Of a DNA stretch of 64,000 nt, positions 23,392 through 32,510 are shown one piece after another; positions within the stretch are counted from its first letter, which is position 1; every line of letters begins with the position of its first letter. This stretch comes from a phage. The DNA lies in assembly GCA_014685065.1 (NCBI GenBank), contig GCA_014685065.1_3930.1; one strand, given 5' to 3'. The notes beneath the pieces are model-generated. The model was not told the DNA's origin. It saw nothing but the letters and a program-made list of their open reading frames with translations, and searched no databases. Made by a program: the position numbers and the translations under genes.

Positions 23392-25008
23392 TCAACGTCT
23401 AAGCCCCTCATATGGGTTTCCTCTCACTAAATCTGTGTGAGCACCCATTGATGGTGGCTTGAATAATTTAACTTCGTTAAGACTGTTGAAAGCATCACTG
23501 GTAGCATCCACTTGGTCATCTTTAGTTTTACCGTCACCACAAAAGCCTTCAAGTTCTTGAAAGTAAGCTTCATTCCAACTACCTCTCAAGACTTTTACAA
23601 GTCCAGCTTCAGAAGCAGCAGAAAATCCCGCAAAGCGGGTAACTTTATCTTTATTTGTTGGTTTGGCTCTTGCTCGATAACCTTTCTCGGCAAGTTTCCT
23701 GATGAGGGATGTTGCGTAGGATTTACCAGCAGCGCCTGGGTCTTGAGGGATAAAAATACCAGTTCGCTTACCGTCACTTTCAGCAGTCAAATTAATTTGT
23801 GTTTCGACTCCAGAGGGTCTATCTCTAAATCTTACTACATCAATGATATAATAGCAACCGTCTTTTTTAGATTTACCCATCTTAACACCTGCTGTCCAGT
23901 CTGGATTAGGGTTAATCTCAGATGGTAAAGTTGCTGCTAAGTCCCATGCTCTAACATCAAATACATCTTCTGGGAGTGAATCAACAATTTCACACCATTG
24001 TCTTTGCCAATAGTTTGAACCTTCTGCACGAGCCTTCCAGTTACCGAAACGAAGTCTTGCAACGTTTACAGGAGTGTTGTTTTCCAACTTACCACGGTAC
24101 TTAGGCTCTAAGAAGTCAAGGATTGGGTTATCATCAATCGTACCAGAAATAAAGGTGTATGTTTGAGGAATCTCAAGGGGGAACATTTCAAGAATCTTGT
24201 CTCTCTCCCAATCAGAAACCATCACGCCATCGTGCATTACATACCAACGAATACGACCACATTTTTCAGGGTCTGGGTAGCCTTCTTCATCTAAGAATGG
24301 CTCTACCCAATCGTAAATAAAGTGGTCTCTGTCTGGGTTCATGGAAATCTTCATGTATGAATCGCCTTCAGCACCAGAACGTAGACGGGTTTGTAGGTAT
24401 GAAATCTGTGAAGCAGAGAAGTGTGTACCTTCGTCAAAGTAAATAGCTGAGTATTCAATACCCTGATGACCTTCAGCGTGCTTTTCAAGTTCTAGGTAGG
24501 TAAACTTGATAGTTGCCCCAGAAGGGAATGTGATAGTCATTTTCTGCTCGTGAGGAATCCCACCAAACTTACCAAATAGTTTCTTTGCAGCAGGCCATAA
24601 ACCACCTTGTAACTGTGTTGTATTTCGACGGAAATATACAGCATTATAGTTAGGGTCTTCAATAAATCTTAAAGAGTCCATTAACAATGCGGCAGTCTTA
24701 CCAGCACCAGCAGCACCACCATAGAGAACCAAGTCAGCATTAGTATTTAAAAAGACCTCTTGAGAACCCGGCTGAGGGGCTACATAGTTCTTATCAGTCA
24801 TCAATTTAAAGATAAGGCGAACTTGGTCTGGTGTGTATCTTAATAAAGTCAGAATTTGAGTTGGAAGGAATTTAGAGGGGTCTTTACCGAATGATTTAAT
24901 AATTTCTTTTACTTCATCAGAAAGCCCCAACTCTCCAGCTAGGACTTTCCTAACATCTTCCACTCGCTTCTGCTTAACAGCATTTAAGTCCATTAAGCGC
25001 CTCCGCAA
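23392..25008 (-). CDS. terminase large subunit
   Basis: 538 aa; Walker A (LVLYGGAAGAGKTAALL), Walker B-like (IYFDEGTHF) and C-terminal nuclease acidic motifs. Confidence 0.85.
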   Translation of the reverse strand: MRRRLMDLNAVKQKRVEDVRKVLAGELGLSDEVKEIIKSFGKDPSKFLPTQILTLLRYTPDQVRLIFKLMTDKNYVAPQPGSQEVFLNTNADLVLYGGAAGAGKTAALLMDSLRFIEDPNYNAVYFRRNTTQLQGGLWPAAKKLFGKFGGIPHEQKMTITFPSGATIKFTYLELEKHAEGHQGIEYSAIYFDEGTHFSASQISYLQTRLRSGAEGDSYMKISMNPDRDHFIYDWVEPFLDEEGYPDPEKCGRIRWYVMHDGVMVSDWERDKILEMFPLEIPQTYTFISGTIDDNPILDFLEPKYRGKLENNTPVNVARLRFGNWKARAEGSNYWQRQWCEIVDSLPEDVFDVRAWDLAATLPSEINPNPDWTAGVKMGKSKKDGCYYIIDVVRFRDRPSGVETQINLTAESDGKRTGIFIPQDPGAAGKSYATSLIRKLAEKGYRARAKPTNKDKVTRFAGFSAASEAGLVKVLRGSWNEAYFQELEGFCGDGKTKDDQVDATSDAFNSLNEVKLFKPPSMGAHTDLVRGNPYEGLRR

Positions 25009-25014
25009 ATAGAA

Positions 25015-25215
25015 TTATTCAGAGTCTGTAGCAGTCTCTTCTTTCTTAACTTCGAATTTAGCATCAACAGCATCAAGAAGTGCATCCATAGATGCCTCTT
25101 TAATATCAATACCTGTTGCTACAGATAATCTGTCTGCAATTGCCATGATAGTGTTCTGCATAAATTCCAGCTTTTTGTTAGCTTCATAAAGTTCTTTATA
25201 AACGGTCTCGCTCAT
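25015..25215 (-). CDS. hypothetical protein upstream of terminase (small-terminase candidate is unproven)
   Basis: 66 aa acidic ORF; SD GGAGAAAACATA before ATG. Confidence 0.4.
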   Translation of the reverse strand: MSETVYKELYEANKKLEFMQNTIMAIADRLSVATGIDIKEASMDALLDAVDAKFEVKKEETATDSE

Positions 25216-25249
25216 TATGTTTTCTCCAAATAATTAACCATGTTTCCCC

Positions 25250-25276
25250 TTAAAAAAGACGGCACAGAGACCGTCA
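25250..25276 (-). terminator. rho-independent terminator downstream of tRNA cluster
   Basis: Minus-sense hairpin GACGG-TCTCTGTG-CCGTC followed by UUUUUU. Confidence 0.5.
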
Positions 25277-25338
25277 AGGAGAAACCACAATGTACGTCAG
25301 AGACATACTGTATAAGTCTTCCTATAAAGTATAACTCT

Positions 25339-25401
25339 GTAAAAAAGCCCTGTCTAAAAATACTCTTCGGTAGCGAAAGGAAGAATACTTATAGCAGGGC
25401 A
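25339..25401 (-). terminator. long imperfect hairpin plus U-tract (terminator or processing site) after first tRNA
   Basis: Minus-sense GCCCTG...CAGGGC arms with internal AAGTATTCTTC/GAAGAGTATTT pairing, followed by UUUUUU. Confidence 0.45.
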
Positions 25402-25437
25402 TTATTATTATTTTAATTGAGAGAGAGTAAAATAACT

Positions 25438-25513
25438 TGGAGAATCCGAAGGGACTCGAACCCTTATAAACCTGTTTTGCAGACAGGCACATAGCCATTT
25501 CTGTCACGGATTC
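25438..25513 (-). tRNA. tRNA-Cys (anticodon GCA)
   Basis: Hand-folded cloverleaf: acceptor GAATCCG/CGGATTC, anticodon loop CTGCAAA, T-loop TTCGAGT, CCA encoded. Confidence 0.65.
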
Positions 25514-25517
25514 AAAT

Positions 25518-25610
25518 TGGAGGAAGATACCAGACTTGAACTGGTACACCGATTTCTCAGCTACTGGCAGTTTAGCAAACTGCTCCCTTACCTTTTAGGG
25601 TTAATCTTCC
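25518..25610 (-). tRNA. tRNA-Ser (anticodon GCU), class II
   Basis: 93 nt; acceptor GGAAGAT/ATCTTCC, anticodon loop TTGCTAA, long variable arm, T-loop TTCAAGT, CCA encoded. Confidence 0.6.
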
Positions 25611-25611
25611 A

Positions 25612-26346
25612 TTATTTCTGTAATGCGTTCTTCATTTCTGGTGTTGCAATAGTGTCAATTACACCAGTTTTACAGGCATCATCAAACCAGTCTGGTAAGA
25701 TACCTGCTAAGAACCCATTGATATTCGTTTTAAGGTACTCTGCAATAAGGGCAGCTTCTTCTTCAATCATCTGCACAACTTCATCTGCATAAGCTGTAAT
25801 CTTTGAGATACCTTCATTAATCTTACTGACAGCTTGGTTAGCTAAATCAGAAACAGTATCAAGACCCTTGTCAATAGCGTCTTGTAAGTCACTTAATACA
25901 TCGTTAACACTCTCTAGTGTACTGTTAATCGTATCAATAGCTTTTTGACCATATTCTGTAGCAACACCCATAATACCACTGAACGGTGTACAACCAACTT
26001 GTTCTCCTGCTGCACCCATAACATTGGAATATCCATTTGCTACCTGCATACGTGATGAAAACTCATCAATAGATTTTTGACCGTAGTCTGTCAGGGTCTT
26101 AGTAGTTGCTGTAGTGCTTGTAAGGCTTGTTGTAAAGCTGTTTAGAAGGACTGTTGTAAGTCCAGCAGCAACAAGTTTCTCCTGCATTGTAGGGTCTGTT
26201 ACAGAACTAATAGAGCTTACAAGTGATGTAGAAGCAGCTACGGTTCCACCGAGAACTGCTGCACCAGTAATAAGTGGGTTAGAAAACCCTTTACCGGTTT
26301 TTAAGAGATTAAAAATCTCCTTACCTTGTTCTGTCATCTCTTTCAT
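25612..26346 (-). CDS. hypothetical protein within tRNA cluster
   Basis: ORF track start 26409 overlaps tRNA-Phe; start moved to internal ATG (MKEMTEQ...); Ser/Thr-rich middle, helical C-terminus. Confidence 0.45.
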   Translation of the reverse strand: MKEMTEQGKEIFNLLKTGKGFSNPLITGAAVLGGTVAASTSLVSSISSVTDPTMQEKLVAAGLTTVLLNSFTTSLTSTTATTKTLTDYGQKSIDEFSSRMQVANGYSNVMGAAGEQVGCTPFSGIMGVATEYGQKAIDTINSTLESVNDVLSDLQDAIDKGLDTVSDLANQAVSKINEGISKITAYADEVVQMIEEEAALIAEYLKTNINGFLAGILPDWFDDACKTGVIDTIATPEMKNALQK

Positions 26347-26362
26347 TAAGCACCTTTGAAAT

Positions 26363-26439
26363 TGGTAGTCCAGTGGGATTTGAACCCTCTTCTCATGTTT
26401 TTCAGACACGCGCTTTAACCATATAAGCTACTTGGACTA
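26363..26439 (-). tRNA. tRNA-Phe (anticodon GAA)
   Basis: Acceptor TAGTCCA/TGGACTA, anticodon stem CGTGT/ACATG with loop CTGAAAA, T-loop TTCAAAT. Confidence 0.55.
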
Positions 26440-26444
26440 TAAAT

Positions 26445-26520
26445 TGGGGTGACCTACGGGATTTGAACCCGTATAGACCATGTTCACAGCATGGGTCATT
26501 GCCATTTATGATAAGGCCAC
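26445..26520 (-). tRNA. tRNA-His (anticodon GUG)
   Basis: Acceptor GTGGCCT/AGGTCAC, anticodon loop CTGTGAA, T-loop TTCAAAT, CCA encoded. Confidence 0.65.
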
Positions 26521-26551
26521 ATTTAAGGACTCTCGTAAGAACCCTTAGAAG

Positions 26552-26627
26552 TGGCAGCGGCATAAGGATTTGAACCTTAATAGGACAGCTTCAGAGACTG
26601 TTGCATTGCCAGTTATGCTATACCGCT
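26552..26627 (-). tRNA. tRNA-Gln (anticodon CUG)
   Basis: Acceptor AGCGGTA/TGCCGCT, D-stem GCAT/ATGC, anticodon loop CTCTGAA, T-stem TAAGG/CCTTA, CCA encoded. Confidence 0.6.
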
Positions 26628-26632
26628 AAATT

Positions 26633-26711
26633 TGGTACTCCATATCGGATTCGAACCGATACATAACACAGATTTTAAGTCTGGCCTCTCTGCCAATTGG
26701 AGTAATGGAGC
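26633..26711 (-). tRNA. tRNA with anticodon UAA (Leu-type) but class I architecture
   Basis: Acceptor GCTCCAT/ATGGAGT, A73, anticodon loop CTTAAAA, perfect T-arm ATCGG-TTCGAAT-CCGAT; short variable region. Confidence 0.45.
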
Positions 26712-26713
26712 AT

Positions 26714-26788
26714 TGGCGGGGGATGTTGGAATTGAACCAACTTCTTCGATTTCAAAGACCGAGGTTTTAACCTTGTAAACTAATCCCC
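26714..26788 (-). tRNA. tRNA-Gln (anticodon UUG)
   Basis: Anticodon stem TCGGT/ATCGA, loop CTTTGAA, T-arm GTTGG-TTCAATT-CCAAC, CCA encoded. Confidence 0.55.
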
Positions 26789-26797
26789 TTTAAATCT

Positions 26798-27355
26798 TTA
26801 CTTTCTCAGTGGATGAATAAAGAATGCCAACATAACTCTTTCCCTTGAGAATGCTCTTTCTTCTGGGACAACACTTTTTAGTTTCCATCCAATATAAATT
26901 CTCCAGTAAAACTGTTTACCAAAGACTTTAATTGATGGGATAAAAGCGAATAATCCCCAAGCATTACTGTTCCACATTAGGAGATAACCTGTCTGATTAT
27001 CTTCAGGGTCAGAACTTACGTTGATATTACCTTTCCACTTAGTAACATCTTTTACATCTCTTCCTAATACATGGTAAGAGAAGTTATAAGCTTTGTTTCT
27101 CCAGAGCCATCCGACTCTCTGCATGTAGACACCCAGCTTACCAATCTTTCTAATCTTAGCCCATCGTTCGATATGACCTTCGTCACCATCAATTGGATTG
27201 TCATATGTCTCCATCCATCTAAATCCGAAAGGTAAGTGGCCTTTCTTCTCACTGTAAAATGGAACTACGAAAGGTGCTAAGATAACTGCTAAGGTTGCTG
27301 CTAATGGTTCTAGCAAAGCTAGGAAAATCCATGAAGCATATTTTAAATATCTCAT
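26798..27355 (-). CDS. hypothetical membrane protein within tRNA cluster
   Basis: 185 aa; N-terminal hydrophobic segments, Trp-rich; sits exactly between two tRNAs. Confidence 0.5.
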   Translation of the reverse strand: MRYLKYASWIFLALLEPLAATLAVILAPFVVPFYSEKKGHLPFGFRWMETYDNPIDGDEGHIERWAKIRKIGKLGVYMQRVGWLWRNKAYNFSYHVLGRDVKDVTKWKGNINVSSDPEDNQTGYLLMWNSNAWGLFAFIPSIKVFGKQFYWRIYIGWKLKSVVPEERAFSRERVMLAFFIHPLRK

Positions 27356-27364
27356 CTAAATAGC

Positions 27365-27440
27365 CTCTTTAAATTGGCGCAGGATAAGGGATTCGAACCC
27401 CTATTAACAGCTTCGTAGACTGTTGCTCTATCCATTTGAA
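27365..27440 (-). tRNA. tRNA-Arg (anticodon ACG)
   Basis: Acceptor GCAGGAT/ATCCTGC, anticodon stem ACAGT/GCTGT, loop CTACGAA, T-loop TTCGAAT, CCA encoded. Confidence 0.65.
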
Positions 27441-27445
27441 CTAAT

Positions 27446-27523
27446 CCTGCAAAATTGGTGTTCCAAGACGGATTCGAACCGTCACTAGTACAAGGTTTGA
27501 GCTTGCATCCTCTGCCAATTGGG
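27446..27523 (-). tRNA. tRNA with anticodon CAA (Leu-type), class I architecture
   Basis: Acceptor GTTCCAG/TTGGAAC, A73, anticodon stem GCAAG/CTTGT, loop CTCAAAC, T-arm GACGG-TTCGAAT-CCGTC. Confidence 0.45.
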
Positions 27524-27524
27524 A

Positions 27525-27599
27525 TACTGGAACATGGTACTCACTAAAGGACTTGAACCTTTTTCTTCATCTTGTAAGGGTGGTGTTTTACCATATAAA
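27525..27599 (-). tRNA. tRNA, probable Val (anticodon UAC); weak anticodon stem
   Basis: Good acceptor, D and T arms (AAAGG-TTCAAGT-CCTTT); loop CTTACAA but anticodon stem has two C/A mismatches. Confidence 0.35.
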
Positions 27600-27604
27600 C
27601 TAAG

Positions 27605-27690
27605 CGAGTATGAAAGAGGTCTGAAGTTGTGCCGCTAACTCAACTCCGTGGAATTTGTTACGGTCTTCAGTTGACACCAGCGGTCTTTCA
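27605..27690 (-). repeat. structured spacer element (CUGAAGACCG family, copy e)
   Basis: Closing inverted repeat AGAGGTC...GACCTCT; internal CTGAAG...CTTCAG stem; contains ACGGTCTTCAG box shared with the other spacers. Confidence 0.4.
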
Positions 27691-27694
27691 CTTG

Positions 27695-27771
27695 ACCTCT
27701 GAATTGGTGCTGCTCACAGGACTCGAACCTGCATTTCCATCCTTACAAGGGATGTGTAATAGCCAATTATA
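27695..27771 (-). tRNA. tRNA-Thr (anticodon UGU)
   Basis: Acceptor GCTGCTT/GAGCAGC, anticodon stem CATCC/GGATG, loop CTTGTAA, CCA encoded. Confidence 0.65.
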
Positions 27772-27777
27772 CGAAAG

Positions 27778-27852
27778 CAGCATTGTTTGGAGCATCCAGA
27801 GGGAATCGAACCCTCAACCTCAGTTTGGAAGACTGTAATTTTCCCGTTTAAA
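27778..27852 (-). tRNA. tRNA-Gly (anticodon UCC)
   Basis: Acceptor GCATCCA/TGGATGC, anticodon loop CTTCCAA, T-arm GAGGG-TTCGATT-CCCTC. Confidence 0.6.
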
Positions 27853-27858
27853 CTATGG

Positions 27859-27934
27859 ATGCACTAATTGGTGGAGAAGCAGGGAATTGAACCCTGTACT
27901 TAAGTTTGCAAAACTTATGTTTTAACCATGTAAA
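27859..27934 (-). tRNA. tRNA-Ala (anticodon UGC)
   Basis: Anticodon stem TAAGT/ACTTA, loop TTTGCAA, T-arm CAGGG-TTCAATT-CCCTG, CCA encoded. Confidence 0.6.
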
Positions 27935-27940
27935 CTACAT

Positions 27941-28016
27941 CCCCAATGTTTGGTACAGGTGGAGGGAATTGAACCCATCGTCTTACTGATTAAGAGTCAG
28001 CCGCATAACCATTTTG
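27941..28016 (-). tRNA. tRNA-Lys (anticodon CUU)
   Basis: Acceptor GCAGGTG/CACCTGT, anticodon stem GCTGA/TCAGT, loop CTCTTAA, CCA encoded. Confidence 0.55.
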
Positions 28017-28023
28017 CTACACC

Positions 28024-28100
28024 TGCATTAATTTGGTACACCTAGAGAGATTCGAACTCACACTGAGCAGATTCTAAGTCTGCTGCCTCTACCAATTGGG
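28024..28100 (-). tRNA. tRNA with anticodon UAG (Leu-type), class I architecture
   Basis: Acceptor GCACCTA/TAGGTGT, A73, anticodon stem GCAGA/TCTGC, loop CTTAGAA, T-loop TTCGAAT. Confidence 0.45.
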
Positions 28101-28356
28101 CTATAGGTGCATTAAATCTTTTTAGAGAACTTCTAAGAACCTAAGCAACAAGGTTCCACAACAAGCTGTAATAACCTTAGAAGCCCTCTAAAAAGACCTA
28201 ATTTGGTCTTTGCATAGTCTTGTTTAATCCGGTGACTAGAACCTTTGGAGAGCTTGATATTATCTCTTCTCCGTGACACCTACTAGGTGCTTTACTGTGC
28301 GTGTACGACAATACACGAGGGATACCAAAGCAACATCCGAATGAAGCTTGGCTTTA

Positions 28357-28446
28357 AATCTTATTAGGCGGTAAGTAAAGGAGTCGAACCCTCACCGTAT
28401 CTCTACAGTGGCAACTGTTTTCAAGACAGTTTGGCTACCATTAGCC
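28357..28446 (-). tRNA. tRNA-Ser (anticodon UGA), class II
   Basis: ~90 nt; acceptor GGTAGGT/ACTTACC, perfect anticodon stem ACTGT/ACAGT, loop CTTGAAA, long variable arm; only CC of CCA encoded. Confidence 0.55.
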
Positions 28447-28459
28447 GCTACCTACCCCT

Positions 28460-28542
28460 AATAAGACTTTGGCATGGGACGGAGGAGTTGAACCACTTTG
28501 AAACGGTTTTGGAGGCCGTTGCTCATGCCTTAGAGTCTTAAC
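28460..28542 (-). tRNA. tRNA-like gene, possible Trp (anticodon CCA); atypical D-region and T-stem
   Basis: Perfect acceptor GTGGGAC/GTCCCAT with CCA; loop CTCCAAA; D-loop over-long and T-stem with mismatches, may be degenerate. Confidence 0.35.
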
Positions 28543-28684
28543 ATCGTCCCACACTATAATTCGAAGCTTACCGTATTTTCACAACACTGTAAAGCCCCTT
28601 CTCAGATTATTTACATGTTCTGGAAAACATGAGATACAGACCACCTCCTTACACGGAGACCCGATAAGGTCGTCTAAGCAATCT

Positions 28685-28761
28685 GCTAACTATTTGGCAC
28701 ACCCTACAGGATTCGAACCTGTAACTAACGATTTAGAAGACCGTTGCTCTATCCAATTGAA
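28685..28761 (-). tRNA. tRNA-Arg (anticodon UCU)
   Basis: Acceptor GCACCCT/AGGGTGT, anticodon stem ACGGT/ATCGT, loop CTTCTAA; D-arm near-identical to tRNA-Arg(ACG). Confidence 0.65.
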
Positions 28762-29008
28762 CTAAGGGTGCATTAATCTTTAAAGACTCTCTTAGAAAGC
28801 CCTTAAAGATGCCCACCTTATTAATCATACCGTGGGCGAGTACGCCAAATTCTTTGATGAGGGATTGGAAGACCTCACTGGTGTTTAGCCTATCAAGCTA
28901 CTGCCAGAAAAACATTGTCGTTTGCATTTATTTTAAATTTGCAAAATAGACGCTACGCAACGAAAACTAAGGTTACTATAAAGTGGTCACATCTCAATGT
29001 CAACAACT

Positions 29009-29084
29009 TTATTGAAATTGGTACTGTGAGAAGGATTCGAACCTTCTGCCTTTCGGTTATCAGCCGAATGCACATCCATATGTG
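29009..29084 (-). tRNA. tRNA-Ile (anticodon GAU)
   Basis: Acceptor GCTGTGA/TCACAGT, D-stem GCAC/GTGC, anticodon stem TTCGG/CCGAA, loop CTGATAA, CCA encoded. Confidence 0.65.
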
Positions 29085-29087
29085 CTT

Positions 29088-29573
29088 TCACAGCATTGTT
29101 ACCCCTTCGTGTACCTCTCTGTGGCAATTTGCACACAGTAATACACACTTATCAACTTCAGACTTCATTACCTCTATAGAGAAGTGTTTTTGTCCTACTG
29201 TGAAGTCCTTTGTATTAGGGTCTAAGTGGTGAAACTCTAAAGCCTTTATGCACTTATTGTATCCACAAATTGAGCAACAACCACCTTTGTAATCAACTAA
29301 AACCCTCTTAAGTTTGTCACGAGACTTTTTAACGTGTTGTGACTTCGCTTTCTTTTCTTCATCGGGGTTTTTGTATTGTTTCAGAATACCATTTGAAATA
29401 CATTCATCACAATACTTTCTTGATTTTGGTGTTTGTTTTCCACATGAATGACAAGAGCCTTCTTGTCTTCTTTTTGGATGACTCTTGTTGTTTACCCTTG
29501 CAGCACAAGAGCGTGAACAATATTTTCCGCCTTTAACGGCTTTGTTGTCACAATCTTTATTAGCACAAAACAT
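29088..29573 (-). CDS. HNH homing endonuclease with N-terminal Cys-rich zinc-finger repeats
   Basis: C-terminal HNH motif (CCSICGYN...LEFHHLDP...CVLLCANCHREVH); four CxxC-type pairs N-terminally; ORF-track start at 29732 would overlap tRNA-Met so start set at MFCANKDC. Confidence 0.7.
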   Translation of the reverse strand: MFCANKDCDNKAVKGGKYCSRSCAARVNNKSHPKRRQEGSCHSCGKQTPKSRKYCDECISNGILKQYKNPDEEKKAKSQHVKKSRDKLKRVLVDYKGGCCSICGYNKCIKALEFHHLDPNTKDFTVGQKHFSIEVMKSEVDKCVLLCANCHREVHEGVTML

Positions 29574-29589
29574 AATATCACCAACGAAT

Positions 29590-29666
29590 TGGAGGTTCAG
29601 ATGGGAATCGAACCCACATTCATAGGGCTTATGAGACCCCTGCATTACCTTATCTGCGACTGAACC
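29590..29666 (-). tRNA. tRNA-Met (anticodon CAU; elongator vs initiator vs Ile2 unresolved)
   Basis: Acceptor GGTTCAG/CTGAACC, anticodon stem GGGGT/GCCCT with G-U ends, loop CTCATAA, T-loop TTCGATT. Confidence 0.6.
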
Positions 29667-29670
29667 ATAT

Positions 29671-29746
29671 TGGTAGAAGTGGAGGGATTCGAACCCATCG
29701 CCTGTCAGATTAAAAGTCTGCCGCATCACCATTCTGCTACACTTCC
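29671..29746 (-). tRNA. tRNA-Lys (anticodon UUU)
   Basis: Anticodon loop CTTTTAA, T-arm similar to tRNA-Lys(CUU), CCA encoded. Confidence 0.6.
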
Positions 29747-29752
29747 ATTAAA

Positions 29753-29894
29753 ATTATCTTTGTAGATAAGCTATCCAGACTTGCTTAAGGTCTGTAGCGA
29801 TGTGCCTTGTTGGGTTTAAATCTAGAATTTACCCTTTCACTCTTTGTGGTCGCATACTCACAGGTAAGCTTAATAACTTATCTACAAAGATAAT
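29753..29894 (-). repeat. perfect 18-bp inverted repeat pair flanking a 106-bp core (hairpin RNA or MITE-like insertion)
   Basis: ATTATCTTTGTAGATAAG at 29753-29770 and exact reverse complement at 29877-29894; core holds CAGAC-TTGCTTAAG-GTCTG hairpin. Confidence 0.5.
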
Positions 29895-29895
29895 T

Positions 29896-30028
29896 ACCAG
29901 ACCGTTGTTTATCATCTTAAGTGCTACCATTACACCAACTCGACATCTGCCGAGTGAAGGAATCGAACCTTCGCCTTTTCTTTACCGGAGAAATAGATTG
30001 TTTAAGTTTTGCTGTAAACGGTCTTCTG
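29896..30028 (-). repeat. spacer element copy a (CCAGACC...GGTCTTCTG family) containing tRNA-like T-arm and D-arm in permuted order
   Basis: Closing stem AGACCGTT/AACGGTCT; internal GGCGAAGG-TTCGATT-CCTTC T-arm-like hairpin followed by GAGTTGGTGTAATGGTAGCAC D-arm-like segment. Confidence 0.4.
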
Positions 30029-30040
30029 TAAATTTGTTGA

Positions 30041-30116
30041 GCCAGACCAAGTTTTAAATTTTCAAAATTAAATTGGCTTGAAATTTCATACATTCTTGCT
30101 GTATTTGGTCTTCTGC
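30041..30116 (-). repeat. spacer element copy b (CCAGACC...GGTCTTCTG family)
   Basis: GCCAGACCAAG...TTGGTCTTCTG closing inverted repeat; conserved ACAGCAAG box in minus sense. Confidence 0.4.
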
Positions 30117-30202
30117 TCCTTTAAAGAATACTCGTAAGAACCCTTTAAGGGAGGGGCTAAATAGCCCTCTCAAAACATCATCTTGAAATACTTATTATAA
30201 TT

Positions 30203-30279
30203 TGGCGGTTACGAAGGGATTTGAACCCTCATCATCTCCCGTGACAGGGGAGTATTTTAACCAGTTAAACTACATAACC
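30203..30279 (-). tRNA. tRNA-Asp (anticodon GUC)
   Basis: Anticodon stem CTCCC/GGGAG, loop CTGTCAC, T-arm GAGGG-TTCAAAT-CCCTT, CCA encoded. Confidence 0.65.
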
Positions 30280-30285
30280 TTTATT

Positions 30286-30373
30286 TGGTGTGCCGTGTAG
30301 GAGTCGAACCTACCGAGTCTCAATGACAAGGGATTTACAGTCCCCACCGCTACCATCTACGGGATAACGACAC
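30286..30373 (-). tRNA. tRNA-Tyr (anticodon GUA), class II
   Basis: 88 nt; acceptor GTGTCGT/ACGGCAC, anticodon stem GGGGA/TCCCT, loop CTGTAAA, long variable arm, T-arm GTAGG-TTCGACT-CCTAC. Confidence 0.6.
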
Positions 30374-30442
30374 ATTTAATTTCTATTCAGGCTAAGGACT
30401 TGCACCTTACAAATCGGTGAGCAATCGCTTCTCTCCTAAATT

Positions 30443-30519
30443 TGGCGGTTAGTCAGGGATTCGAACCCTGTGCCATTCGCTTAACAGGCGACCGCACATA
30501 CCTTATGTGCTTCCTAACC
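30443..30519 (-). tRNA. tRNA-Asn (anticodon GUU)
   Basis: D-stem GCAC/GTGC, anticodon loop CTGTTAA, T-arm CAGGG-TTCGAAT-CCCTG, CCA encoded. Confidence 0.6.
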
Positions 30520-30529
30520 TTAATACATT

Positions 30530-30591
30530 GCCAGACCGTGTTTTTTCTTTTATCCGCAAAAAGTATTTTGTTGCTGAATACGGTCTTCTGC
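30530..30591 (-). repeat. spacer element copy c (CCAGACC...GGTCTTCTG family)
   Basis: GCCAGACCGTG...ATACGGTCTTCTG closing inverted repeat with ~45-nt structured loop. Confidence 0.4.
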
Positions 30592-30596
30592 AAAAT

Positions 30597-30672
30597 TGGA
30601 GGCGGGTGCAGGAGTCGAACCTGCCGATACCATGCTAATGAGACATGTGAGACGCCCTTTCTCTATACCCGC
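30597..30672 (-). tRNA. second CAU-anticodon tRNA (Met/fMet/Ile2 candidate)
   Basis: D-stem GAGA/TCTC, anticodon stem CATGT/GCATG, loop CTCATTA (unusual U at position 37), T-arm GCAGG-TTCGACT-CCTGC. Confidence 0.5.
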
Positions 30673-30683
30673 AATTCTTAATG

Positions 30684-30759
30684 ACCAGACCAAATCTCTT
30701 CTTTGTCCGATTTACCTTCAGATGAATAAGATTAAGTTTGCTGTAATTGGTCTTCTGTC
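30684..30759 (-). repeat. spacer element copy d (CCAGACC...GGTCTTCTG family)
   Basis: GACCAGACCAAA...ATTGGTCTTCTG closing inverted repeat; conserved ACAGCAAACTTAA box in minus sense. Confidence 0.4.
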
Positions 30760-30764
30760 AAAAC

Positions 30765-30842
30765 TGGCGTTCCAGAAGGGATTTGAACCCTCAAATATCC
30801 ACTTTGAAAGAGTGGTGACTTTACCATTTTGTCTACTGGAAC
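30765..30842 (-). tRNA. tRNA-Glu (anticodon UUC)
   Basis: Perfect acceptor GTTCCAG/CTGGAAC and anticodon stem CCACT/AGTGG, loop CTTTCAA, CCA encoded. Confidence 0.65.
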
Positions 30843-30849
30843 ATTAATT

Positions 30850-30929
30850 TGGTCTCCGTTGAAGGATTTGAACCCTCGACCCCTTGCTCCCAAAGCAAGT
30901 GCTGCTAAACCAAACTGAGCTAAACGGAG
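30850..30929 (-). tRNA. tRNA-Pro (anticodon UGG)
   Basis: Anticodon stem CTTGC/GCAAG, loop TTTGGGA; 3' half resembles bacterial tRNA-Pro (GGGGTCGAGGGTTCAAATCC); CCA encoded. Confidence 0.6.
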
Positions 30930-30954
30930 ATAAACTTTTCAAACTCTATGTAAC

Positions 30955-30986
30955 CACTTTAACATTATTTTTTAGTGGTTGTCAAG
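30955..30986 (-). promoter_or_regulatory. candidate sigma70-type promoter for the tRNA operon
   Basis: Minus-sense TTGACA-N17-TTAAAG with AT-rich upstream tract, ~25 nt before tRNA-Pro 5' end; AACCACT/AGTGGTT inverted repeat overlaps it. Confidence 0.35.
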
Positions 30987-31042
30987 AACTTTTTTAAAAT
31001 ATTTTTCAGTATCTTAGAAAAGCTCTCATTTCGTTTCTATGT

Positions 31043-31082
31043 AGAACATATTAAAGGGTATCAAACACATTGTCAATACCCT
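31043..31082. terminator. hairpin AAAGGGTAT...ATACCCTTT (terminator-like on plus strand)
   Basis: 9-bp perfect arms, T-run follows on plus strand; lies just downstream of the vWA gene stop. Confidence 0.3.
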
Positions 31083-31094
31083 TTTTAAAACTTT

Positions 31095-32510
31095 TTACCA
31101 GATGTAACGGTCAATCATTACTGCTTTGAGCATTACGCTGATTGGGTCAAACTTCTCACCACCAAGCAGAGCTTTTAAAGTGGCTGGAGAGAACCCTGAT
31201 ACCATTGCTACACCATTATCCTTAACAGATACTTCGCAAGTACCATTACGGTTTGCTAAGTACCAGAATACCAGTTGTGGCATTTTGTATCCAGCTTTTT
31301 TGTACTTACTACGAATCGCTTCAAAGTTTGTACGACCATTAGCTCCATCAACCTGATTGAACTCCATATCAGAGAAGATAATAAGCTTACTTGGCATATC
31401 TTTCTGAGTCAAGTTGTTTCTCTTACCTGTTTCAAGAATGCGGTCAAAAGCTGCTTGTAAGTTAGTTGAGCCATATTCAACGTGTCGCATCACCTGACGA
31501 TGACGGTTTCGTAAATCACCACTCAGTTCGATGAAGTGAGGGTTTGTCGAATAAACCATCAACTCATTCTTAAAGCAACCTGTATTGCGTTCTGCTACAT
31601 ACAAGGCAAGTGATACACCAATATCCAGAGCAGTAATGGAGCCAAAATTCACCCAAGACATTGAACTTGATACATCAGACATACACAAGATGTTTTCACC
31701 TTCTGCCATCCAGTTTGGTAGTGCTTTCCACTGCTCATTAGCAACATCTGCATTACCATACTTGACAGATTTAATCACATCGTATGGGTAAACAGCACCA
31801 GCGTTAATCTTAGTCTCACCTTTTGATAAGGACTCGATGTAAGCTTTGTAACGCTCTCCATCTTTACGGTTAAACAGTTTTTGGTAACGTGCAGCAGCAA
31901 GTGAAGGAATCTTACTGTAGTCAATCTTACCAAACTCATTAGCAGAGATTTTTTGCTCAACTGTATCAGATAGTGCAGACAACAGTGTGCGATACTCTTT
32001 CTCACTCAAGTTTGCAAACTTGCAGAAACGTTTTACAAACTGTTTGTGACGTGGTTTTACTCGTGGTAACCACTTAGCTGCTAAACCTGCTGTTGCAGGG
32101 TCTAGTAAAGCTGCTTCTAAATGTTTGAAGGCATCTGTCTCGAAACGAGTACCTACAAAGATTTTGAAGTCATCAAAGCGACCAAGCTCTGCAATCTTAT
32201 CCATAATGCGAAGAACCTGCGTAGGCTCTAAAACTTTATCTTCAATCGCTTGAAGTAAAACAGTTCGGAAAGCTTTACGCTCACCCATACCTTCTCGTAC
32301 ATCTCGCATATGCAGTAAAATACGAACTGCAACATCAACATCCTCATGCAAAGCTTTGTAGAACAAGTCTGGTAAGATTTCTACATTGCTACGGCTGGAA
32401 CCAGCAGCTTTGTAAAAGTCCACAAGAGCAGACATTGATGAAGTATGGTTTACAGCACCATTTTCAGTTCGACCTGCATGAAGGTGCGCATGTTTAAATA
32501 ATTCGCTCAT
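31095..32510 (-). CDS. von Willebrand factor A (vWA) domain protein with helical N-terminal domain
   Basis: 471 aa; MIDAS-like DxSxS motif (MSDVSSSMS) and downstream Thr/Asp positions (GSTNL, IIFSDMEF) typical of vWA. Confidence 0.55.
   Translation of the reverse strand: MSELFKHAHLHAGRTENGAVNHTSSMSALVDFYKAAGSSRSNVEILPDLFYKALHEDVDVAVRILLHMRDVREGMGERKAFRTVLLQAIEDKVLEPTQVLRIMDKIAELGRFDDFKIFVGTRFETDAFKHLEAALLDPATAGLAAKWLPRVKPRHKQFVKRFCKFANLSEKEYRTLLSALSDTVEQKISANEFGKIDYSKIPSLAAARYQKLFNRKDGERYKAYIESLSKGETKINAGAVYPYDVIKSVKYGNADVANEQWKALPNWMAEGENILCMSDVSSSMSWVNFGSITALDIGVSLALYVAERNTGCFKNELMVYSTNPHFIELSGDLRNRHRQVMRHVEYGSTNLQAAFDRILETGKRNNLTQKDMPSKLIIFSDMEFNQVDGANGRTNFEAIRSKYKKAGYKMPQLVFWYLANRNGTCEVSVKDNGVAMVSGFSPATLKALLGGEKFDPISVMLKAVMIDRYIW

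Follow-up and report, generated by a model that had tools for sequence, protein, structure and literature searches.

Repeated stem-loops in the tRNA cluster

The analysed stretch of DNA (64,000 nucleotides; hereafter, the window) comes from a Felix O1-like phage (Felixounavirus) and has a cluster of 26 tRNA genes on the minus strand. An element repeated before several of these genes is a family of transcribed RNA stem-loops, not a promoter. All four copies in the window (c1 to c4) are RNA hairpins on the transcribed strand. Their AU-rich stems measure 10-28 bp and mostly end in a UACG loop (UNCG-type tetraloop), and the imperfect positions in them are G·U, not A·C. The positions of the hairpins and of the adjoining elements are summarized in Table 1.

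Table 1. Positions in the window of the four hairpins, the elements next to them and a nearby promoter
Feature	Positions	Strand	Sequence and remarks
c1 hairpin	26524..26547	(-)	UAAGGGUUCU(UACG)AGAGUCCUUA; 10 bp, 2 G·U pairs
c2 long hairpin	28111..28202	(-)	5' arm (AUUA)GGUCUUUUUAGAGGGCUUCUAAGG, 3' arm CUUAGAAGUUCUCUAAAAAGAUUU(AAU); 24-28 bp
Intrinsic terminator	28190..28210	(-)	AAGACC-AAAUUA-GGUCUU-UUU; immediately upstream of c2 and overlapping it; read from sequence
c3 hairpin	28777..28809	(-)	UCUUUAAGGGCUUUC(UAA)GAGAGUCUUUAAAGA; 15 bp, 3 G·U pairs
GC-rich hairpin	28811..28837	(-)	GCCCAC...GUGGGC, then AUCUUU; directly upstream of c3; read from sequence
Sigma-70 promoter (Felix O1 P45)	28975..29003	(-)	TTGACA-N17-TATAGT; 11/12 consensus matches; PMC3185647 section 2.5
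c4 hairpin	30116..30153	(-)	core 30121-30148, UUAAAGGGU.CU(UACG)AG.AUUCUUUAA, plus CUCC/GGAG extension; ~15 bp, U·U mismatch
GC-rich hairpin	30151..30171	(-)	GAGAGGGC-UAUUUA-GCCCCUC; directly upstream of c4; read from sequence

The c1 hairpin (fold of -16.4 kcal/mol, z = -3.8) sits in the 31-nt spacer from tRNA-Gln(CUG) to tRNA-His, where it is followed by AAU (3 nt) and then by G-1 of tRNA-His; hundreds of Ounavirinae records contain it unchanged or nearly so. The arms of c2 (-39 kcal/mol, z = -6.05) enclose a variable insert of roughly 38 nt; its 5' arm overlaps the 3' half and the U-tract of the preceding terminator, which is kept in relatives with varying loops, and its 3' end abuts the UAG tRNA, with (UU)UAAU as the linker. 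The c3 hairpin (-19.9 kcal/mol, z = -5.1) precedes tRNA-Arg(UCU) by 5 nt (UUAAU) and ends a promoter-driven tmRNA-tag-like RNA. The GC-rich hairpin upstream of c3 is also kept in relatives, with CCCGU...ACGGG in phiEa104. Just 5' of the spacer element CAGAAGACC...GGUCUGG lies c4, which by itself was no stabler than shuffled sequence (z = -0.75) and whose extended stem is overlapped by the 3' arm of the preceding GC-rich hairpin.

The initial annotation had described the element by a consensus sequence at four sites. A search with this consensus, allowing up to three mismatches, gave only two matches, at 30119-30143 (c4, no mismatches) and 26520-26544 (c1, two mismatches), where 0.00 matches were expected in shuffled sequence. 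The consensus thus describes c1 and c4 well, but c2 and c3 are degenerate relatives (more than three mismatches or indels), whose kinship to c1 and c4 is seen in the structure and in the sequence of the arms. The copy originally aligned at c2 is a real relative, although it represents just the 3' arm of the 24-28-bp hairpin, the 5' arm of which lies about 60 nt upstream, and the position given for c3 (28762-28795) has to be corrected by about 15 nt, since it took in the first 10 nt of the tRNA and omitted the 5' arm. A covariance model built from the c1/c4 type scored 52 bits for c1, 51 bits for c4 and 12.8 bits (E about 2) for c3, and did not find c2. It detected no further copy in the 64-kb window and, when run on the complete genome of Felix O1, none beyond the tRNA cluster.

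Conservation of base pairing

The stem of c2 was 97.5% paired over 24 pairs in alignment A1, two pairs being changed on both sides and six on one side through G·U, compared with 37-65% when the 3' partner was slid. For the hairpins of the UACG family within Ounavirinae, 91.7% pairing was found over 12 pairs, five of which were changed on both sides; when the three phage lineages that carry the hairpin (Felix O1-like, T5-like and phiEco32-like) were aligned together, 94.6% of the cells were paired and 7/12 pairs were changed on both sides. Neither result was reached by any of 500 shuffles. The non-Watson-Crick cells in the three-lineage alignment comprised about 27 G·U on the sense strand and about 4 A·C, all at the base of the stem, and the hairpin was always co-oriented with the local genes. 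Because compensatory and G·U-type changes are needed only by RNA, these results indicate selection on the sense-strand RNA, not on promoter DNA.

Individual sites showed the same pattern. At the c3 site, Mordin has C>U and U>C changes with pairing kept, Felix O1 and SUSP1 have a different 16-bp hairpin allele with three compensatory changes, and phiEa104 has a UACG-type hairpin. One pair of c4 occurs across genomes as G·U, A-U and G-C, with an A·C mismatch in the Felix O1 copy. Compensatory maintenance of pairs in independent lineages, by which a conserved structured RNA element is generally recognized, was therefore found for this family.

The loops vary (UACG, UGCG, UAUA, UAA and large inserts) and the stems persist. 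The apical UUCU-UACG-AG is identical in most copies, including those of different lineages, and this identity exceeds the need of a generic structural cap; a recent horizontal transfer or a partner that recognizes the sequence may account for it. If the hairpin were a sequence-specific site for a phage or host RNA-binding factor acting on stable-RNA precursors, for example in their maturation or protection, the same apical sequence in three unrelated lineages would be explained. The apical UUCUUACGAG is invariant in all c1 and c4 copies of Ounavirinae and in the phiEa104 copies and nearly so across lineages, and the 5' strand of c4 has been kept although its partner changed (the U·U mismatch). 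However, other loops and apices are tolerated at the same site (UGCG with swapped pairs in L154, UAUA in S114 and UAA in c3), c2 and the Felix O1 allele take large inserts, and no protein common to all three lineages emerged as a candidate. We regard a dedicated factor site as quite unlikely.

Placement and distribution

The fixed position relative to the following gene, noted in the initial annotation, was confirmed: the hairpin bases lie 0-5 nt from the next RNA gene in the window, and 0-6 nt when phiEa104 and the T5-like phages are considered with tRNA-His, tRNA(UAG) and tRNA-Arg(UCU) of the window. A GC hairpin or a true terminator lies directly upstream at c2, c3, c4, L171 and L154, and the 5' arm of the hairpin absorbs the U-rich tract of the upstream element. 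The exception is c1, which is preceded by a tRNA acceptor stem, not by a terminator-like hairpin. Note that a hairpin tightly adjacent to the preceding tRNA, as at c1, would seem to hinder rather than help the 3' maturation of that tRNA.

The hairpins are found beyond this group of phages. In T5-like phages, the same hairpin precedes tRNA-Arg(UCU) by 6 nt and tRNA-Lys(CUU) by 1-2 nt, the latter as in L171; in phiEa104 it is followed by tRNA-Leu(CAA), and in the phiEco32-like phages (Kuravirus) it occurs near tRNA-Arg(UCU). The homologues in T5-like, Kuravirus and Erwinia phages have the same fold. Only the hairpin of about 26 nt is common to the lineages, not its flanks, and no copy was found in 185,579 bacterial species genomes or in E. 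coli genomes; both the restricted common part and the confinement to phages would also suit a factor site. No family in Rfam was matched by the hairpin or by the T5-like and phiEco32 loci; the matches that overlapped the copies at E <= 5 (microRNA families for c1 and c2, a weak tmRNA match for c3) were far below threshold.

The neighbours of the hairpins have been exchanged. Two different tRNAs follow c2 in different genomes, the hairpin being the unchanged partner of the upstream unit, and at c3 either hairpin allele (A or B) may be joined to either of two downstream sequences; an inserted ORF separates the hairpin from tRNA-Arg in bobsandoy. Because the hairpin keeps with the upstream unit when neighbours swap, it may belong to the upstream RNA as a trailer no less than to the downstream RNA as a leader. 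The same junctions at the 3' edge of the hairpin (either of two tRNAs following c2, and four pairings of allele and neighbour at c3), the paralogous copies within one cluster, and the association with tRNA-Arg(UCU) (linked in Ounavirinae and T5-like phages, nearby in Kuravirus) could also be read as a repeat with no RNA function of its own. Such a boundary, linker or miniature mobile palindrome would have spread with tRNA cassettes (e.g. that of tRNA-Arg(UCU)) by recombination between co-infecting phages and persisted as a hot spot of module exchange, like the PeSL cassettes of T4-type phages. A DNA linker, however, would not need the compensatory and G·U-biased changes, which reveal selection on pairing in the RNA of one strand. 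The constant placement at 0-6 nt from RNA 5' ends also speaks against this explanation, which we consider very unlikely.

Promoters, terminators and antitermination signals

The initial annotation had also raised the possibility of internal promoters of an unfamiliar type. On such a reading, the element would restart transcription after upstream terminators. The copies do follow terminator-like hairpins and just precede genes, how transcription of Felix O1 passes its many terminators is unknown (PMC3185647), and by inspection weak -35/-10-like hexamers are present in some copies, such as TTAAGA-N17-TAAAAA in slur09. This proposal was not borne out: the stems are kept by compensatory and G·U-type changes, with G·U on the sense strand only, and contain no usable -35/-10 pair. 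A sigma-70 promoter would have -35 and -10 hexamers spaced by 16-18 bp, with A2 and T6 in the latter. None of the four copies was among the sigma-70-like matches listed for 25000-31500, promoter-like matches in the cluster were no commoner than in shuffled sequence, and a promoter here would place the start site inside or at the edge of a tRNA. Strong sigma-70 promoters at 31076, 30985 and 29003 already serve these units; the RNA with c3 and tRNA-Arg(UCU) at its end is transcribed from P45, which shows that c3 is not needed as a promoter. Furthermore, neither an RNA polymerase nor a known specificity factor is encoded by Felix O1 (PMC3185647), and the three lineages bearing the hairpin differ in transcription strategy. 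A DNA promoter is thus extremely unlikely.

Other signals were considered and rejected. A promoter for a T7- or N4-type phage RNA polymerase would be expected before many genes genome-wide, but both in the window and in Felix O1 as a whole the copies keep to the tRNA cluster, and no RNA polymerase has been reported for Felix O1 (PMC3185647). Phage polymerase promoters (the 23-bp T7-type and the N4 hairpin) are, like the present element, motifs of about 25 nt that recur directly before transcribed units, but here there is no phage RNA polymerase, selection is on RNA pairing and the motif is confined to the RNA-gene cluster. The hairpins are not intrinsic terminators, as the GC content of their stems is only 22-41% and the sequence after them is AAU, UUAAU or UUAAAC, with no U-run; the terminator scan listed none of them, and the terminator-like hairpin is a separate element just upstream. 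The rrn/lambda boxA antitermination site (a single-stranded, UGCUCUUUAACAA-like element) was not enriched (47 matches versus 41.9 expected), and no hairpin copy matched it within three mismatches.

Possible role in RNA processing

The hairpin is probably an RNA processing or stability signal, as suggested by the occurrence of the same hairpin before stable-RNA genes in unrelated T5-like and phiEco32-like phages. The processing or leader signal offered as the other option in the initial annotation is supported in kind, the element being a transcribed stem-loop 0-6 nt before stable RNAs in three lineages; as for the acting nuclease and a stabilising or insulating role, we infer them from the anatomy of the hairpins. 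On balance, we favour, with moderate confidence, the explanation that the stem-loop family punctuates the polycistronic precursor of the phage tRNA and small-RNA cluster. The candidate roles are a cap against 3'-exonucleases or a folding insulator and, for the long versions, an RNase III site.

Under this explanation, the hairpin would be present only in read-through or long precursors, where it would insulate the folding of the neighbouring RNAs. RNase P would cut at +1 of the downstream tRNA, or RNase E within the short A/U linker, and the hairpin would then stay on the upstream fragment as a 3'-terminal cap, blocking 3'-exonucleases and setting the 3' end of that fragment, analogous to the acceptor stem of the upstream tRNA elsewhere in the cluster. 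The longest versions (c2 and the 15-17-bp versions before tRNA-Arg) would be plausible substrates of RNase III as well.

It is also conceivable, though rather unlikely, that the hairpins are specifically RNase III sites, at which the host enzyme would cut both arms. The tRNA or small RNA would thereby be parted from the RNA before it, with a short leader left to RNase P, in the manner of the T7 early-region sites. RNase III substrates in vivo typically span roughly two helical turns. Against a mark of at least 20 bp of dsRNA, c2 offers 24-28 uninterrupted bp, the hairpins before tRNA-Arg in the window (c3) and in T5-like phages and the Felix O1 allele (a 16-bp outer stem) offer a borderline 15-17 bp, and c1, phiEco32-a, L154-b and phiEa104 have just 9-12 contiguous bp, which is short for RNase III. 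The perfect pairing kept in stems whose loops take large inserts would suit a double-strand-specific recognition indifferent to such inserts, but the hairpins do not have the internal-loop architecture of the T7 sites.

A broader proposal, which we likewise hold to be a minor possibility, would make the terminator-like hairpin and the UNCG-capped AU hairpin together a phage-specific, horizontally exchanged punctuation cassette that licenses stable-RNA expression. The second hairpin would be a surrogate acceptor stem or a recognition site for a host or phage nuclease or factor, so that, in each module, read-through precursors would undergo correct cleavage and maturation at the leading tRNA or small RNA, and the cassette would travel with tRNA-Arg(UCU) and other RNA genes among Felix O1-like, T5-like and phiEco32-like phages.

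Comparison with known systems

The RNase III stem-loops of T7 early genes (R0.3, R0.5, R1.1 and others) are likewise paralogous conserved stem-loops between units of a polycistronic phage transcript made by host RNA polymerase, and act at the RNA level, as putatively here. The T7 sites have two stems of roughly 10 bp around an internal loop, with proven cleavage, whereas the present hairpins, known from sequence, carry UNCG loops on AU-rich stems that run for 10-28 bp with no interruption, and they flank stable RNAs, not mRNAs. T4 intercistronic UNCG (CUUCGG-type) hairpins and the 3' stabiliser hairpins and REP elements of E. coli are similarly very stable, tetraloop-capped intergenic hairpins, thought to block 3'-exonucleases and to define RNA ends. 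The present hairpins differ in having AU-rich stems, a U-A instead of a C-G closing pair, a sequence common to three phage lineages, and a position tied to the 5' edge of a tRNA or small-RNA gene and to a GC hairpin before it. The PeSLs (promoter-early stem-loops) of T4-type phages are also short repeated stem-loop modules that border variable gene modules and are associated with shuffling, but they carry an early promoter and flank small ORFs, while the present hairpins have no promoter, follow terminator-like hairpins and flank RNA genes.

Phage tRNA clusters have received renewed attention as counter-defence and translation-tuning modules, and the expression and maturation of their long, untranslated, terminator-studded transcripts are largely unknown, explicitly so for Felix O1 (PMC3185647). 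If the hairpin is only a generic barrier to exonucleases, it would be ordinary biology, still worth an RNA-family entry. It is a useful annotation marker for module boundaries and adjacent unannotated small RNAs, and a hairpin of about 30 nt that is common to three unrelated groups of enterobacterial phages and always edges a stable-RNA gene provides a concrete, mutable handle on the expression and maturation of these transcripts.

Structure of the motif copies

The window region shares 93-97% identity with Felix O1-like phages (Felixounavirus, Ounavirinae), among them KEP3, Felix O1 and garuso, and ARAGORN predicted 26 tRNA genes in it, among which lie one HNH-type ORF, two conserved ORFs and several non-tRNA spacers. 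The initial annotation had described a motif of ~25 nt immediately 5' of four elements of this cluster. With up to three mismatches allowed, its consensus matched only 30119-30143 (exact; c4, the copy 5' of a spacer element) and 26520-26544 (two mismatches; c1, the copy before tRNA-His), and shuffled sequence gave no match at this threshold. The copies before the UAG tRNA (c2) and tRNA-Arg(UCU) (c3) were far more degenerate; a covariance model of the c1/c4 type scored c1, c4 and c3 at 52, 51 and 12.8 bits, respectively, and missed c2. The initial description is therefore confirmed in part: two copies are solid, and c2 and c3 are distant relatives. The coordinates previously assigned to c3 were displaced into the tRNA, and the stretch aligned for c2 is only the 3' arm of a longer helix. 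The 5' arm of this helix, (AUUA)GGUCUUUUUAGAGGGCUUCUAAGG, lies about 60 nt upstream of the 3' arm and takes in the 3' half and the U-tract of a canonical terminator.

Folding showed that all copies are stem-loops on the transcribed strand (Table), on which their imperfect pairs are G·U; read on the other strand, these would be A·C. A terminator was rejected as an identity for the motif, its stems being AU-rich and followed by no U-run.

Table. Features of the tRNA cluster and of related loci in other phages (loops in parentheses; L-numbers are loci or contigs compared)
Feature	Position	Strand	Structure or size	Remark
c1	26524-26547	minus	UAAGGGUUCU(UACG)AGAGUCCUUA, 10 bp	fold z-score -3.8
c2	28111-28202	minus	24-28 bp	fold z-score -6.05
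c3	28777-28809	minus	UCUUUAAGGGCUUUC(UAA)GAGAGUCUUUAAAGA, 15 bp	fold z-score -5.1
c4	30116-30153	minus	about 15 bp, UACG loop, one U·U mismatch	fold z-score -0.75
c3-site allele, window type
c3-site allele, Felix O1/SUSP1 type			16-bp outer stem, large insert	three compensatory pairs
c3-site allele, UACG type				phiEa104
tRNA genes	25438-30929	minus	26 genes
tRNAs with Leu anticodons UAG, CAA, UAA	28034-28110, 27456-27533, 26633-26711	minus	77-79 nt
Degenerate tRNA-like sequence	28470-28550	minus
Promoter-like site	near 28582-28553			precedes tRNA-like sequence
A-rich leaders	28111-28121, 28772-28781, 30930-30945			also L005, L007 spacers
Strong sigma-70 promoters	31076, 30985, 29003
Tag-encoding RNA	28772-29003	minus	about 190 nt	promoter TTGACA-N17-TATAGT
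Tag frame	28890-28925
Tag-encoding RNA, L143	8520-8640			IMG/VR contig 3300011904_000028
Five spacer elements	30674-30764, 30520-30596, about 30040-30116, about 29895-30035, 27610-27704	minus
DUF2828/DUF7788 gene	31095-32510	minus	471 aa
T5-like hairpin			GUAUUUUUAAGAGUUUU(UACG)AGAGUUCUUAAAAAUAC, 17 bp	6 nt upstream of tRNA-Arg(UCU)
ORF-free stretch, T5-like phages	L155 710-1500; L156 490-1290; L148 2358-3000		650-850 nt
ORF-free segments, phiEco32-like phages	L147 2523-2760 (phiEco32), L154 10040-10120		about 230 nt and about 60 nt

Conservation within Ounavirinae

We compared the clusters of Felix O1 (whole genome), garuso, Mordin (Mooglevirus), SUSP1 (Suspvirus), phiEa104 (Kolesnikvirus) and about 40 IMG/VR contigs. 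The 24 pairs of c2 were 97.5% paired over 10 distinct variants, versus 37-65% when the partner was slid; two pairs were altered on both sides (U-A to G-C and A-U to G-C) and six on one side via G·U. In the alignment of UACG-type hairpins (c1, c4 and the single phiEa104 copy), the 12 pairs were 91.7% paired and five were altered on both sides, which none of 500 shuffles equalled. At the c3 site, each genome has one of three hairpin alleles. Strong covariance-model matches numbered exactly two (c1 and c4) per Felixounavirus, Mooglevirus or Suspvirus genome and one in phiEa104, and the remainder of the Felix O1 genome gave no further match.

The earlier suggestion of an internal promoter of an unfamiliar type fails, because selection acts on the RNA pairing of one strand and because the motif has no usable -35/-10 pair (sigma-70 scan and hexamer inspection). 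Moreover, Felix O1 has no RNA polymerase of its own (PMC3185647), and each transcription unit already starts from a strong sigma-70 promoter (31076, 30985 and 29003); that at 29003, about 190 nt upstream of c3, is Felix O1 P45 (PMC3185647).

Three further candidates were rejected. A boxA (Nus antitermination) site was suspected because the 3' arm holds UCUUUAAA, and neither enrichment nor a match within three mismatches was found. The octamer UACGAGAG of c1 also occurs in the 23S rRNA sarcin-ricin loop; mimicry of this loop was rejected because the octamer is not retained in c4, c3 and L154 (a phiEco32-like phage) and because folding to minimum free energy gives a UACG tetraloop hairpin, not a GAGA loop. 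Mimicry of a T-arm or an anticodon arm was rejected since its registers fail to pair.

The same hairpin in T5-like and phiEco32-like phages

Searched by BLAST, the 32-nt c1 spacer also had matches in phages other than Ounavirinae. In T5-like Demerecviridae, the hairpin stretch was matched in several hundred records (514 match a 181-nt query that includes the hairpin), where it lies at the end of about 800 nt of promoter-driven non-coding sequence. A second T5-like copy belongs to the main T5-type tRNA cluster; a GC hairpin directly precedes it here too, and tRNA-Lys(CUU) begins 1-2 nt downstream of it. In Kuravirus (phiEco32-like), one copy comes after the gene 101 stop codon and opens a conserved 290-nt intergenic region that closes with a terminator. 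In a second copy, from the relative L154, the loop is UGCG and the apical pairs are swapped; a canonical terminator's U6 tract forms its start, and it is followed by a short hairpin-plus-terminator unit.

Between the lineages the hairpin alone is shared and the flanks differ, and in every lineage it lies on the coding strand. When 14 distinct hairpins, drawn from all three lineages, were aligned without gaps, 94.6% of the cells were paired (40-65% in slid controls) and 7 of the 12 pairs were altered on both sides, with no equal among 500 shuffles. G·U cells outnumbered A·C cells by about 27 to 4, the latter lying at the stem base.

No copy was found in E. coli genomes, and the only one in 185,579 bacterial species genomes (one per species) was in a mis-binned phiEco32-like contig; a host origin was rejected. 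Rfam (E <= 5) gave only far-below-threshold matches over the motif copies, and a known RNA family was rejected accordingly. A 14-mer scan of IMG/VR gave mostly chance matches; a recurrent group there (L025, L026, L057 and others) looked hairpin-like and was rejected, lying within a long ORF on the opposite strand.

The promoter-driven, ORF-free stretch that T5-like phages have upstream of the hairpin and tRNA-Arg(UCU) holds a tRNA-like element that lacks a normal anticodon loop (called 'tRNA-???' by ARAGORN) and had no Rfam match; it may be a large unannotated non-coding RNA. The conserved ORF-free segments 3' of the phiEco32-like copies end in strong terminators and look like unannotated small RNAs.

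Other RNAs of the cluster and a protein gene upstream of it

Judged by their length, all three tRNAs bearing Leu anticodons are without the long variable arm that class II tRNA-Leu has. The UAG tRNA of the window (GCACCUAUAGCC...) is similar to the tRNA-Arg(UCU) paralogue and differs from the UAG tRNA (GGGAGAUUGA...) that Felix O1, Mordin and SUSP1 carry after this same hairpin, c2. The degenerate tRNA-like sequence (GGGACGA...CUCCAAA...GGUUCAACUCC...CCGUCCCAUGCCA) was not called by ARAGORN and had an Rfam tRNA-clan match of 21 bits. An A-rich leader ending in GAUU(U)AAU or GUUUAU (e.g. AAAGAUUUAAU, AAAGAUUAAU and AAAAGUUUAU) precedes the first tRNA of each sub-cluster and overlaps the 3' end of the initially described motif. 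By inspection it fits RN/WUU, the sequence preference of RNase E.

The conserved RNA whose 3' end is c3 is transcribed from a strong sigma-70 promoter and carries a tmRNA-like tag frame, GCA AAC GAC AAT GTT TTT CTG GCA GTA GCT TGA TAG (ANDNVFLAVA with two stops; ANDAQFLAVA with two stops in phiEa104). In Mordin, ARAGORN calls a 'permuted tmRNA' with this tag, and an ssrA gene is named in the Moogle genome announcement (PMC4319497). Rfam gave only a weak tmRNA match (15.9 bits), and no adjacent tRNA-like domain was evident. The same RNA (ANDEQFLAVA with one stop) occurs in L143, a GC-richer contig outside Ounavirinae with no tRNAs nearby, suggesting that this element moves independently of the tRNA cluster.

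The five spacer elements have in common CAGAAGACC...CAGCAA...GGUCUGG, the Thr-Val spacer being a variant. That at about 29895-30035 folds into a closing stem with a T-arm, a loop-closed acceptor-like stem and a D-arm, a layout resembling YrlA-type bacterial Y RNAs (PMC4201824); the Mordin spacer has GCCA after the acceptor strand. Rfam gave no Y-RNA match for the spacers in the window. The gene that immediately precedes the cluster encodes a protein with DUF2828 and DUF7788 domains, for which PHROG 850 ('RNA-binding protein') was a match. This protein may partner the Y-RNA-like spacers in a Ro60-like way, which we offer as a lead only since no PDB chain matches it in sequence.

Architecture and likely role of the hairpin

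The copies recur in a common order: an upstream unit, a GC-rich terminator-like hairpin (at c1, a tRNA acceptor stem in its place), the AU-rich hairpin, whose 5' arm includes the U-rich tract, a 0-6 nt A/U linker and a stable RNA. Where neighbours differ among genomes, the hairpin remains with the unit 5' of it: c2 has one or the other of two different tRNAs after it, alleles A and B of c3 combine with two different downstream sequences, and in the T5-like phage bobsandoy an ORF is inserted 3' of the hairpin, between it and tRNA-Arg(UCU). From this architecture and linkage, we therefore infer that the hairpin is most likely a punctuation element of the precursor RNA. It would insulate folding; once RNase P or RNase E had cut in or after the linker, the upstream fragment would keep the hairpin as a 3' cap, and the first tRNA of each module would thereby have the structural context supplied elsewhere in the cluster by an upstream tRNA. 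The long versions (c2 and those before tRNA-Arg) could additionally be RNase III sites, although the 9-12-bp versions are too short for RNase III to be a general explanation.

The apical UUCU-UACG-AG is near-identical in most copies. A recent passage of tRNA cassettes between phages that infect the same hosts may account for this, as may a sequence-specific partner; the tolerated variants (UGCG, UAUA, UAA and large inserts) argue for structure over sequence.

The hairpin sequence was not found in print in the literature searched, nor is it mentioned in the searched parts of the Felix O1 and wV8 genome papers. The family appears undescribed and has no Rfam entry. In kind it resembles known intercistronic processing or stabilising hairpins (T7 RNase III sites, T4 UNCG hairpins and REP elements), but it is phage-specific, limited to the borders of stable-RNA genes and common to three phage lineages.
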